Of a stretch of DNA of 64,000 nt, positions 54,306 to 54,392 are shown piece by piece (within the stretch, counting starts at the first letter, position 1; the number at the start of each line of letters is the position of its first letter). The position numbers and the translations under genes are program-made. Source of the DNA: Minisyncoccia bacterium (GTDB lineage: Bacteria > Patescibacteriota > Minisyncoccia > Phycocordibacterales > UBA918); NCBI GenBank assembly GCA_046293175.1, contig JBKBPM010000001.1, positions 511,847 to 575,846 on the forward strand, in the 5' to 3' direction. The notes beneath the pieces are model-generated. The model saw only the letters and a program-made list of their open reading frames with translations. It was not told the origin of the DNA and did not search any database.

Positions 54306-54392
54306 GGTACCGTGGCAGAGTGGTTTATTGCATTGAGCTTATACCTCAACAGACTTGCTTAGGGTCTCGTGGGTTCAAACCCCACCGGTACC
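54306..54392 (+). tRNA. class-II-like tRNA with anticodon UAU (Ser-like architecture: long variable arm, G73)
   Basis: Acceptor GGTACCG/CGGTACC, D-arm GCAG-AGTGGTTTA-TTGC, anticodon stem TTGAG/CTCAA with loop CTTATAC, 19-nt variable arm with its own stem, T-arm GTGGG-TTCAAAC-CCCAC, discriminator G. Lies inside the IS-like element. Confidence 0.55.

Follow-up and report, generated by a model that had tools for sequence, protein, structure and literature searches.

The IS1595-family element and its cargo

The window, i.e., the entire 64,000-nucleotide stretch of DNA analysed here, belongs to a Candidatus Paceibacteria (CPR) genome and harbours a 1,999-bp element of the IS1595 family (54077–56075), which is inserted precisely at the 3' terminus of a gene for a heavy-metal ATPase and carries a tRNA gene with the anticodon UAU as cargo (Table 1). 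A preliminary description of the sequence had placed this tRNA inside a transposable element, which is confirmed by the transposase, the inverted repeats, the target duplication and the empty site in relatives. The empty site, consisting of a single TATTACCC with no IS DNA, was found in four contigs of related strains (L092–L095). Target duplications of the IS1595 family typically comprise 8 bp, and duplications of this length also flank the related elements; an apparent 13-nt direct repeat turned out to be composed of the 8-bp duplication and the adjoining inverted-repeat ends. Recent transposition of the IS is supported.

A search of both strands of the cargo against Rfam yielded, beyond the tRNA, no family at its gathering score. 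The cargo may be viewed as an RNA cassette of three parts: (i) a leader with a strong terminator hairpin, (ii) the class II tRNA, and (iii) a promoter-like site followed by an antisense segment.

Table 1. Features of the IS1595-family element and its target site (positions refer to the window)
Feature	Position	Strand	Evidence and remarks
Target-site duplication, left copy, TACTACCC	54069..54076	.	8 bp; single TATTACCC in the empty site of related strains
Terminal inverted repeat, cargo side, CACGCCTATCCCGTTATAACATAA	54077..54100	+	24 nt, pair 88% complementary; repeat type also bounds related elements
Promoter-like site P1, TGGTCA-17-AATAAT (9/12)	54141..54169	+	Scan; by eye, extended -10 TGcTATAAT at 54158–54166
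Leader RNA	54173..54305	+	Ends in long hairpin 54237–54294 plus U-run, ~10 nt before the tRNA
Class II 7/5 tRNA, serine-type body, G73	54306..54393	+	ARAGORN, Rfam, parse; anticodon UAU at 54340–54342
Promoter-like site P2, TTGAAA-17-TATAAT (11/12)	54409..54437	+	Promoter scan; preceded by TGTGGATAA at 54398–54406
Segment antisense to the tRNA variable arm (54352–54365)	54444..54457	+	+51 from the discriminator; predicted 5' end of P2 transcript
Predicted sRNA, ~110 nt	54444..54556	+	P2 to terminator hairpin 54515–54552 (hairpin pair); 5' antisense segment predicted unpaired
Non-coding block 3' of the transposase gene	54901..55158	-	~75% conserved with the element in L069
IS1595-family DDE transposase, 288 aa	55161..56027	-	PF12762, E = 9.6e-30; NF033547, 176 bits (cutoff 75)
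Terminal inverted repeat, transposase side	56052..56075	+	Inverted-repeat pairing
Target-site duplication, right copy, TACTACCC	56076..56083	.	Includes stop codon of P-type ATPase gene (56078–58012, minus strand)

Fold and predicted charging identity of the UAU tRNA

A scan of the window with ARAGORN called a tRNA(tat) at 54306–54394. The match to Rfam RF00005 (model positions 1–71) reaches 56.4 bits (E = 1.8e-9 for the whole window) with a full-length cloverleaf, exceeding the gathering threshold of 29 bits; the nine other tRNAs of the window score 49.6–69 bits. Parsing revealed an acceptor stem GGTACCG/CGGTACC with Watson-Crick pairs at 7/7 positions, followed by U8 and G9, a D-arm GCAG-AGTGGTTTA-TTGC (stem of 3–4 bp, 9-nt loop in ordinary tRNA-Ser style) followed by A26, an anticodon stem TTGAG/CTCAA paired at 5/5 positions with the loop CTTATAC, and a T-arm GTGGG-TTCAAAC-CCCAC with a 5-bp stem. 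The 19-nt variable arm (CAGACTTGCTTAGGGTCTC) folds into a 6-bp stem (four Watson-Crick and two G-U pairs) with a 5-nt loop, which assigns the tRNA to class II. All stems are paired, and U33, A37, the T-loop TTCAAAC as well as G18 and G19 are intact; CCA is not encoded. The cloverleaf lies 1.8 kcal/mol above the minimum free energy, a range into which most of the genuine class II tRNAs tested fall. An 8/4 or 9/3 fold as in allo-tRNAs is ruled out, as U8 faces C65 and forms no pair. The canonical fold of the preliminary description (7-bp acceptor, 5-bp anticodon stem, TTCAAAC loop) is thus upheld by the parse, as is, together with ARAGORN and the isotype scores, its observation of Ser-type features (19-nt variable arm, G73) combined with the anticodon UAU; only its end coordinate (54392) is one base short, the discriminator G73 being located at 54393.

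The occurrence of a serine-type body and predicted serine identity elements together with an Ile(AUA) anticodon in one tRNA is supported by several features, those used by bacterial SerRS among them. The core of the tRNA displays C11-G24, G15/C48 and 3 nt between G19 and A21, which we take, from work on E. coli and T. thermophilus, to be the core positions of tRNA-Ser. Moreover, the acceptor carries G1-C72 and G2-C71, both conserved in most bacterial tRNA-Ser (PMC9976931). The discriminator is G in six of the nine reference Ser tRNAs (U in the other three), and A in all Leu and genuine Tyr references (U in an aberrant 93-nt 'Tyr' tRNA of Acj9). The D-loop spacing is alpha 1/beta 3, and the variable arm has the geometry 1 nt, 6 bp, loop, 6 bp, 1 nt, which is shared by the host Ser(CGA) tRNA and 7/9 Ser references, and by none of the Leu or Tyr references; variable arms of the latter two comprise 3–4 bp with 1–2 unpaired 3' nt (Leu) and 2–3 bp with 2–3 unpaired 3' nt (Tyr). 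Leu or Tyr identity was rejected on account of G73, the core and the variable-arm geometry.

Sequence comparisons point in the same direction. Alignment identity amounts to 64% and 63% with Ser(UGA) tRNAs, at most 50% with Leu and at most 39% with Tyr tRNAs. Among 50,697 phage records, the best full-length match was the tRNA-Ser(UGA) of Bacillus phage PK-3 (72% identity over 85% of the tRNA; a weak match, E = 3), the T-stem matches phage Ser(UGA) tRNAs at every position, and the D-arm shares 21/22 positions with tRNA-Ser of T4-like phages. A position-specific score that ignores the anticodon and covers 61 structural positions yielded 37.5 bits for Ser, 25.0 for Tyr and 4.4 for Leu (34.0, 24.1 and 4.4 bits, respectively, with an extended reference set); the references are few (9–10 Ser, 6 Leu, 4–5 Tyr), the margin of Ser over Tyr is ~10 bits, and 18 of 19 references were correctly assigned in leave-one-out tests. 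The 5' half of the tRNA provides no isotype discrimination.

Two features count against the serine reading, i.e., the anticodon arm (A/U-rich stem, C32/C38), which is unlike those of Ser(UGA) tRNAs, and U3-A70, which stands in place of the A3-U70 of E. coli tRNA-Ser. The absence of a serine anticodon (NGA or GCU), replaced by UAU, bears on decoding and not on charging.

Flanking RNA elements and a second cassette

The promoter scan identified P1 as the sole candidate promoter upstream of the tRNA, which has none of its own. Between the two lies the terminator hairpin of the leader, with perfect 13-nt arms (54241–53 and 54278–90) and a folding energy of -45 kcal/mol; no such hairpin was found upstream of host tRNA genes. 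Neither this hairpin nor the downstream element antisense to the variable arm was recognised in the preliminary description.

An equivalent arrangement is present in a second element (L072/L073, IS at 1775–4185), the transposase of which is 77% identical to that of the window and which is flanked by the duplication GGTTTATG. Its cargo comprises a 91-nt class II tRNA with G73, the anticodon GUA and a variable arm identical in geometry to that in the window (isotype score: Ser 62.6, Tyr 26.8), located behind a similar leader (common motif) and terminator hairpin. The antisense segment of L072 differs in sequence from that of the window, and matches the variable arm of its own tRNA. In both cassettes a putative small-RNA segment complementary to the tRNA adjoins the latter, directly preceded by a sigma-70-like promoter site (TTGATT-16-TATACT in L072).

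In both cases the antisense segment is located at +51 and can form a helix with its own variable arm, of 14 bp (-23.7 kcal/mol) in the window and 18 bp (-32.1 kcal/mol) in L072. Pairing was assessed by counting the longest contiguous helices, since RNAduplex energies are uninformative on long sequences. A 14-bp helix was reached by 13 of 990 random windows, so that the match in the window is weak when taken by itself and the case depends on recurrence in L072; a length of 18 bp was reached by none of 1,108 random windows, and a helix comparable in length and place occurred in none of 23 control class II tRNAs. Upstream terminator and downstream antisense segment together suggest that the output of the tRNA is restrained.

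Carriage of such tRNAs is rare. Each tRNA-bearing element was found in one population only (L001 being 100% identical to the window), and no tRNA cargo of this kind was detected in ~25 further elements of this IS clade, complete or partial, the cargo of which varies from small ORFs and an M78 peptidase to non-coding DNA. Likewise, no tRNA occupies the cargo position at 60 loci of distant IS1595 relatives (≤55% identical) or at 16 loci retrieved from viral and metagenome contigs by the inverted-repeat pattern, and nine additional close relatives yielded none either, except for a possibly degenerate tRNA-Asn-like gene downstream of the related transposase in L100, which may lie outside the IS. 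These three scans rule out tRNA cargo as a general trait of the IS family. The tRNA, the cassette and the leader motif were not found in viral contigs, and comparison of the whole IS with plasmids and of the whole cargo with phage records revealed no specific match.

Possible function and relation to known systems

Within the 53 genes of the window, 110 AUA codons are present (6.4 per 1000; 12–26 per 1000 in phage-like contigs with a related IS). For ten of them, whose genes also occur in a relative lacking the IS, the aligned residue is Ile in seven cases, Met in two and Ala in one, and in no case Ser. With respect to AUA usage, named in the preliminary description as informative, AUA is, judged from these alignments, read by the host as a rare Ile codon. 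Recoding of AUA to Ser by the host was rejected on the basis of the same alignments, and recoding of the element's own genes on that of the single AUA of the transposase gene (residue 246): since the DNA of L069 encodes Val there in an 87%-identical transposase, this residue is aliphatic and not Ser.

Our tentatively preferred reading is that of a Ser-accepting missense tRNA kept under tight restraint and carried by an IS1595-family transporter IS. SerRS, being blind to the anticodon, would charge the UAU tRNA with serine, and RNase P cleavage, 3' trimming and CCA addition would enable it to deliver Ser at AUA and possibly also at AUG via U34 wobble. The terminator, placed 10 nt upstream, and the antisense element would limit output; the latter could pair with the variable arm in trans (as sRNA) or in cis (within a read-through precursor), and in either mode the principal determinant of serine identity would be hidden. 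The module might then represent restrained toxic cargo in the manner of addiction or abortive-infection systems rather than a supplementary decoder. This reading is weakened by the tRNA lacking a promoter of its own and residing behind a strong terminator, because it may thus be nearly silent. The restriction of each tRNA-bearing element to one population and the lack of such cargo in ~25 elements of the clade speak against it as well. The second cassette also counts against it, since ~40 Tyr codons per 1000 are exposed to the GUA tRNA of L072, which, if charged with serine, would be very costly.

A more specific proposal, which we consider rather doubtful, is an all-RNA toxin-antitoxin (or abortive-infection) module on an IS. 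The role of toxin would fall to a stable tRNA charged with serine despite its non-serine anticodon (UAU; GUA in L072), and that of antitoxin to a short-lived sRNA, the 5' end of which pairs with the variable arm needed by SerRS. Once sRNA synthesis stops, the tRNA would become charged and poison translation, with AUA-rich genomes being hit hardest.

Among the alternatives to a missense tRNA, the one that survives best, though it has a limited probability, is a tRNA-shaped RNA outside translation, serving the element in regulation, in RNA processing or as a structural component (e.g., as RNase P/Z punctuation freeing the sRNAs on either side, or by binding or sequestering the antisense sRNA). 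The location of the tRNA between a terminator and a promoter, without a promoter of its own, would suit such a role, as would the conserved pairing with the neighbouring RNA, for an RNA-RNA function need not involve the ribosome. However, the elements required for translation (U33, A37, TTCAAAC, G18 and G19) are intact, the T-stem does not differ from that of phage Ser(UGA) tRNAs, and G73 and the serine-type arm geometry, unneeded for a mere processing signal, are retained in two cassettes of differing sequence.

Less probable still is a neutral hitch-hiker or young pseudogene, i.e., a captured tRNA-Ser with drifted anticodon that is silent and neither selected nor harmful. The rarity of the tRNA-bearing elements (one population each), the very variable cargo of the same IS clade, the upstream terminator and the possibly degenerate tRNA-Asn-like gene in L100 would be compatible with this. 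Yet no stem contains disrupted pairs, and the anticodon stem differs wholly from Ser(UGA) arms while retaining 5/5 Watson-Crick pairs, and therefore its structure was maintained through many substitutions. In addition, leader, tRNA architecture and antisense segment recur with a 77%-identical transposase, with variable-arm and antisense sequences compensated. The anticodon-mutated pseudogene considered in the preliminary description is thus unlikely, given intact stems and universal nucleotides and an equivalent cassette in a second IS.

The other alternative of that description, an unusual tRNA-Ile(UAU) charged by IleRS via its anticodon and providing extra capacity for AUA, is very improbable. 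A35, U36 and A37 are present, IleRS depends heavily on the anticodon (PMC9976931), and extra decoders would help with a codon as rare as AUA is in the host. However, all five determinants described for E. coli tRNA-Ile (A73, C4-G69, U12-A23, C29-G41 and G16; PMC9976931) are absent, the corresponding positions being G73, A4-U69, A12-U23, G29-C41 and U16. The body is of class II, whereas the two Ile(GAU) references are class I tRNAs with a 5-nt variable loop; the score against Ile(GAU) tRNAs is 4.3 bits, compared to 24.5 bits for genuine Ile tRNAs (two references only). Moreover, strains with the empty site retain AUA and appear to decode it without a copy at this site (an IS elsewhere being possible), and a role in codon supply is also at odds with the second cassette, in which GUA is combined with G73. 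Charging by LeuRS or TyrRS, for which Leu-charged class II nev-tRNAs with UAU among their anticodons (PMC3333845) and a class II tRNA(UAU) with A73 in the viral contig L104 could be adduced, is the least probable alternative in view of G15/C48 instead of the A15-U48 of Leu, a D-loop spacing and variable-arm geometry unlike all Leu and Tyr references, and the low Leu score (4.4 bits).

Should the preferred reading hold true, controlled, deliberate mistranslation could be a mobile trait, and there would be a testable reason for the repeated occurrence of UAU in such tRNAs. To our knowledge, natural tRNAs with a charging identity contradicting their anticodon are rare; here, a candidate is carried by an IS, recently transposed and with both ends defined, in a CPR bacterium, and its apparent restraint (terminator plus antisense) recurs, compensated in sequence, in a second element with another anticodon. 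It would also be the first example of an RNA regulating a tRNA by masking an identity element, and would offer genetic-code engineers a natural, compact on/off design for a missense tRNA.

Bacterial tRNA-Ile(UAU), e.g., that of Mycoplasma mobile, likewise has UAU for AUA, but is a class I tRNA with isoleucine identity elements and a co-adapted IleRS. In type I and III toxin-antitoxin systems (e.g., ToxIN), a small RNA gene resides beside that of a harmful product and neutralises the latter by direct binding; mobile elements often carry such RNA-antitoxin systems, some of which act in abortive infection. Their known toxins are proteins or the respective mRNAs; in the present cassette, a tRNA would take the place of the toxin, and the antitoxin would act by covering the identity element recognised by the synthetase.

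The element itself resembles the IS1595-family transporter IS (tIS; Siguier, Gagnevin and Chandler 2009, cited in PMC3129680) in its IS1595-type transposase, inverted repeats, 8-bp duplication and the additional DNA carried between one end and the transposase gene; it differs in that the passenger is an RNA cassette (leader, tRNA, sRNA). Our literature search retrieved no report of a tRNA as IS1595 cargo.

Class II tRNAs with an anticodon (UAU among them) mismatching the charging identity are also represented by the nematode nev-tRNA(UAU) and nev-tRNA(CCC), which show low expression and match codons of rare use (Hamashima et al., NAR 2012, PMC3333845); in contrast to the present tRNA, these are eukaryotic, derived from tRNA-Leu, charged with leucine, conserved among nematodes and without a described mobile element. 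In case of mistranslating tRNA-Ser anticodon variants, engineered in yeast and natural in humans, the changed anticodon leads to Ser misincorporation because SerRS ignores it, and toxicity needs modulation (e.g. PMC6827378, PMC12993449). Unlike the tRNA studied here, these are non-mobile point variants of eukaryotic host genes without dedicated antisense or terminator control.

The closest precedent is provided by the allo-tRNAs (Mukai et al., NAR 2017, PMC5389517), which have a long variable arm and G73 pointing to serine, UAU as predominant anticodon, and a location near transposon-related genes and toxin-antitoxin systems. Active allo-tRNAs, which direct Ser to sense codons, exert toxicity in E. 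coli. Six allo-tRNA(UAU) species of presumed Ser identity were inactive in E. coli, which counts against the missense reading, and most allo-tRNA(UAU) species were suggested to be RNAs outside translation. The UAU tRNA of the window shares with allo-tRNAs the long variable arm, G73 (G73 or U73 in allo-tRNAs) and a non-serine anticodon. It differs in its 7/5 fold and ordinary tRNA-Ser D-arm, compared to the 8/4 or 9/3 branch and tRNA-Sec-like D-arm (long stem, tetraloop) of allo-tRNAs, and in its CPR host, compared to Clostridia, Proteobacteria and Acidobacteria. The present tRNA is accompanied by an IS of defined extent with its target duplication, a terminator upstream and an antisense partner, none of which is mentioned in the parts of PMC5389517 consulted. 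While the allo-tRNA precedent concerns an aberrant fold, with UAU members lacking a known function, the window contains a canonical serine-type tRNA with the same UAU anticodon. The UAU tRNA most likely works like allo-tRNA(UAU) without, on account of its 7/5 fold, being a member of that group.

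Carrier insertion sequence and its empty site

The class II tRNA gene with anticodon UAU (UAU tRNA) travels as cargo within a genuine IS1595-family insertion sequence (IS) that has transposed recently. The preliminary description had placed it inside a transposable element, which is borne out by the transposase, the inverted repeats bounding a 1,999-bp unit, the 8-bp duplication TACTACCC on both sides of it, and empty sites in related strains: in four contigs (ATPase in the same cluster at ≥90 %; 95 % identical in case of L092) the ATPase gene directly abuts the DUF5672 gene with a single TATTACCC each, and IS-like DNA is absent at this junction. 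The host is a MAG of a Candidatus Paceibacteria bacterium with the IS on a 676-kb contig. The sole other copy of the exact transposase (L001) stems from this very locus, sharing 100 % identity along 2.5 kb, and represents no independent case. Transporter IS of the IS1595 family are an already known kind, to which this carrier belongs.

Features of the UAU tRNA cassette and its carrier (window positions)
Feature	Position	Description
Inverted repeats	54077-54100 and 56052-56075	24 nt each
P1, promoter-like site	54141-54169	only one upstream of UAU tRNA; 5' of ~130-nt leader
Predicted terminator		hairpin + U-run, -45 kcal/mol; ends 10 nt 5' of tRNA
Acceptor		GGTACCG/CGGTACC
Positions 8-9		U8 G9
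D-arm		GCAG-AGTGGTTTA-TTGC
Anticodon arm		stem TTGAG/CTCAA, loop CTTATAC
Variable arm	54352-54365 (GACTTGCTTAGGGT, part facing the antisense segment)	19 nt
T-arm		GTGGG-TTCAAAC-CCCAC
Discriminator	54393	G73
P2, strong promoter-like site	54409-54437	TTGAAA-17-TATAAT
Antisense segment	54444-54457	ACCCTAAGCAGGTC, complementary to GACTTGCTTAGGGT
Transposase ORF	55161-56027	IS1595 family, minus strand

Cargo among close transposase relatives is highly variable, comprising small ORFs, M78 peptidase, ClpP-like protease or non-coding DNA. In a related strain (L068, 563-862 and 839-1764), a 97 %-identical transposase occupies exactly this target TATTACCC, likewise next to the DUF5672 gene, in opposite orientation and followed by different DNA with a gene for a ClpP-like SDH protease and no tRNA; this contig stops before a distal inverted repeat is reached. 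The site may be a hot spot for insertion or may have been rearranged. A non-coding block just 3' of the transposase gene (54901-55158), holding the hairpin TCCCCACTTCCGCGGGGA and lacking an Rfam match, is about 75 % conserved in an 87 %-related IS with otherwise different cargo (L069, 2365-2631). Cargo of the latter (2640-3170, phage-like context) consists of about 830 nt of non-coding DNA without ORF or Rfam match and may represent another structured RNA.

Perfect copies of the DnaA-box-like 9-mer TGTGGATAA occur in the 64-kb window only at 54398-54406 (just 5' of P2) and 55131-55139 (just past the transposase stop codon), both in IS cargo, at a chance expectation of 0.55 over the whole window; an 8/9 copy is found at 54133-54141, and TTATCCACA follows the transposase stop in L069. 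GATAAC-like target duplications are common in this IS clade; flank and IS end thus read TTATCCACG. In one related strain (L092, 159-4210), a stretch encoding a Rep-like protein and a serine recombinase beside tRNA-Glu(CUC) and tRNA-Ser(CGA) is probably an integrated element adjoining tRNA-Glu(CUC); the window and L093 contain other genes at this site.

Serine-type body and Ile-codon anticodon

A tRNA with anticodon TAT was called by ARAGORN at 54306-54394 and detected by the Rfam tRNA model with 56.4 bits (window-wide E = 1.8e-9), inside the range of the nine other window tRNAs (49.6-69 bits). Together with the 7/5 cloverleaf read directly from the sequence, both detections agree with the canonical fold claimed previously. 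The cloverleaf lies 1.8 kcal/mol above the MFE, and most genuine class II tRNAs behave alike. CCA is not encoded, being present in just 1 of 10 window tRNA genes. U8 is opposite C65, which rules out an 8/4 fold.

For isotype assignment, 19 reference class II tRNAs (ARAGORN calls from the window, CPR loci and phage tRNA clusters) were parsed by structural position. Among the references, Ser tRNAs show G73 or U73 and G1 G2, have G19 and A21 spaced by 3 nt, and form a variable-arm stem of about 6 bp with 1 nt on each side; Leu and Tyr tRNAs have A73 and variable arms of 3-4 bp with 1-2 unpaired 3' nt and of 2-3 bp with 2-3 unpaired 3' nt, respectively. The UAU tRNA shows the serine state at every one of these features, as well as C11-G24 and G15/C48. 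In a 15-member alignment of class II tRNAs, it shares 64 % and 63 % identity with Ser(UGA), ≤50 % with Leu and ≤39 % with Tyr. Its D-arm is 21/22 identical to that of T4-like phage tRNA-Ser. Among 50,697 phage records, Bacillus phage PK-3 supplies the best full-length match, a weak one (E = 3): its tRNA-Ser(UGA) shows 72 % identity across 85 % of the UAU tRNA. An anticodon-blind position-specific score (61 positions; 18/19 references correct in leave-one-out) ranks Ser first with 37.5 bits (Tyr 25.0, Leu 4.4; 34.0, 24.1 and 4.4 with two added references), which is supporting rather than decisive, since each isotype has few references and the 5' half is non-discriminating. Discriminator, variable-arm geometry, D-loop spacing, alignment and score thus all point to the Ser-type body proposed in the preliminary description, combined with an anticodon for an Ile codon. 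The alternative of an unusual tRNA-Ile(UAU) is unlikely, as of the determinants needed for Ile identity (A73, anticodon, C4-G69, U12-A23, C29-G41, G16; PMC9976931) only A35 and U36 are present.

AUA occurs 110 times in 53 window genes (6.4 per 1000 codons, or 9 % of those for Ile). In genes common to the window and IS-free L092, ten AUA codons are opposite ATA/ATC/ATT (7), ATG (2) and GCA (1), and none of the ten is opposite a serine codon; the single AUA of the transposase aligns with Val in the L069 homologue. Judged from these counts and alignments, AUA is a rarely used Ile codon of the host and nothing is recoded. If charged with serine, the UAU tRNA would therefore be a missense tRNA. Phage-like contigs carrying related IS use AUA 2-4 times as often as the host, weak evidence compatible with a defence role.

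Another tRNA with anticodon UAU is located on a viral contig (L104, IMGVR_UViG_3300045741_000433, 417-501, minus strand; 85 nt, 14-nt variable region, A73, encoded CCA). It was called by ARAGORN, yet has no Rfam match at gathering score, and is not serine-like (6.5-8 bits). Its neighbours form a phage cluster of odd tRNAs, for which ARAGORN gives one anticodon of 4 bases ('taaa'), one of 2 bases, and anticodon loops of enlarged size.

Flanking elements of two tRNA cassettes

A second IS (L072/L073, 1775-4185; transposase 77 % identical, duplication GGTTTATG) holds a 91-nt class II tRNA in the same place and orientation. This tRNA has anticodon GUA, G73, G1 G2 A3 and the variable-arm geometry of the UAU tRNA, and scores 62.6 (Ser), 26.8 (Tyr) and 21.9 (Leu). 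Its best full-length phage match is tRNA-Ser(GGA), and its 5' half is like phage tRNA-Tyr. Himeno et al. (1990) reportedly converted tRNA-Tyr to serine acceptance in vitro via A73 to G and a longer variable arm; that construct seems to have a natural counterpart in the tRNA of L072. The two tRNA cassettes known each come from one population. Separately, a tRNA-Asn(GUU)-like gene (L100, 3678-3749; 48 bits, two mismatched anticodon-stem pairs) lies 600 nt 3' of a transposase with 68 % identity and shares its strand, on a contig stopping before the distal inverted repeat.

Promoters and terminators in both cassettes represent consensus matches. The promoter-like scan found no promoter of its own for the UAU tRNA. 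In L072, hairpin and U-run stop 5 nt before the tRNA in the same layout as in the UAU cassette; no such upstream hairpin is present at host tRNA genes. The motif TAGCT..TT.AAAAG(.)GACCGTA(A)GGA...GACAGCTA is common to both leaders, whose local-alignment score is reached by 5/500 shuffles. A search for the motif core (GACCGTA, 1-16-nt gap, GACAGCTA; ≤1 mismatch per block) yielded no other locus in comparable context, the only further matches (L009, L027, L082) being mismatched and unrelated.

Downstream, the antisense segment and the variable arm of the UAU tRNA form a 14-bp helix including G-U (10 contiguous Watson-Crick), matched by 13/990 random windows and hence weak when taken alone. In L072 this layout recurs, again at offset +51: TTGATT-16-TATACT precedes ATACCGCTCTAAGGTGTC, which is complementary to the variable arm of the L072 tRNA, GACGCCTTAGAGCGGTGT, a sequence unlike that of the UAU tRNA (18 bp, 12 Watson-Crick); helices of >15 bp were found in 0/1,108 random windows in this comparison. 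Among 23 control class II tRNAs, no similar helix with the variable arm was found at +51; the closest case is one of 11 bp starting at tRNA position 41. Duplex energies amount to -23.7 (UAU) and -32.1 (L072) kcal/mol versus -4.6 and -8.2 for the variable-arm hairpins, and the antisense segment is modelled as unpaired in the predicted sRNA of the window. No terminator was found between tRNA and antisense segment, so that a read-through precursor would hold the antisense in cis too.

The P2 region with upstream TGTGGAYAA (54398-54445) matches intergenic DNA of an uncultured Manatee Spring siphovirus (MW202577.1, 9651-9697) at 86 % identity (E = 6e-4). A mini-ORF containing AUA (ATG CTT ATA CCC TAA, 54436-54450) shares bases with the P2 -10 box and with the antisense start, and the 9-mer GCTTATACC at this site repeats the anticodon-loop sequence of the UAU tRNA; L072 has no equivalent, and both are probably coincidence.

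Proposed function and relation to known systems

The best-supported reading of these sequence features is an IS-borne tRNA that would accept serine and could read AUA, its output being lowered by the upstream terminator and by an antisense RNA that would cover the variable arm, i.e., the serine identity element. The main rival is a tRNA-shaped RNA never reaching the ribosome: the report on allo-tRNAs (PMC5389517) suggests a non-ribosomal role for most allo-tRNA(UAU) species and describes six of them as inactive in E. coli. Simple decay is argued against by the two cassettes, which keep serine-type features and a matching antisense despite differing sequences and anticodons, and which thereby argue for function. 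Restraint this elaborate is in keeping with a harmful product, and the gain to the element may lie in addiction, in abortive infection or in mistranslation induced by stress.

Searches of open-access papers found neither an IS1595 element with a tRNA among its cargo, nor a bacterial tRNA-Ser of canonical 7/5 fold carrying an Ile anticodon, nor an sRNA complementary to the variable arm of a tRNA. Allo-tRNAs (PMC5389517) work alike, combining serine identity with a non-serine anticodon, predominantly UAU, and have links to transposons and toxin-antitoxin systems, the UAU tRNA likewise being IS-borne. However, it lacks their defining 8/4 or 9/3 fold and tRNA-Sec-like D-arm and is therefore not a member of this class. 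A parallel is provided by nev-tRNA(UAU) of nematodes, a tRNA charged with Leu whose expression is weak and whose codons are rare (PMC3333845).
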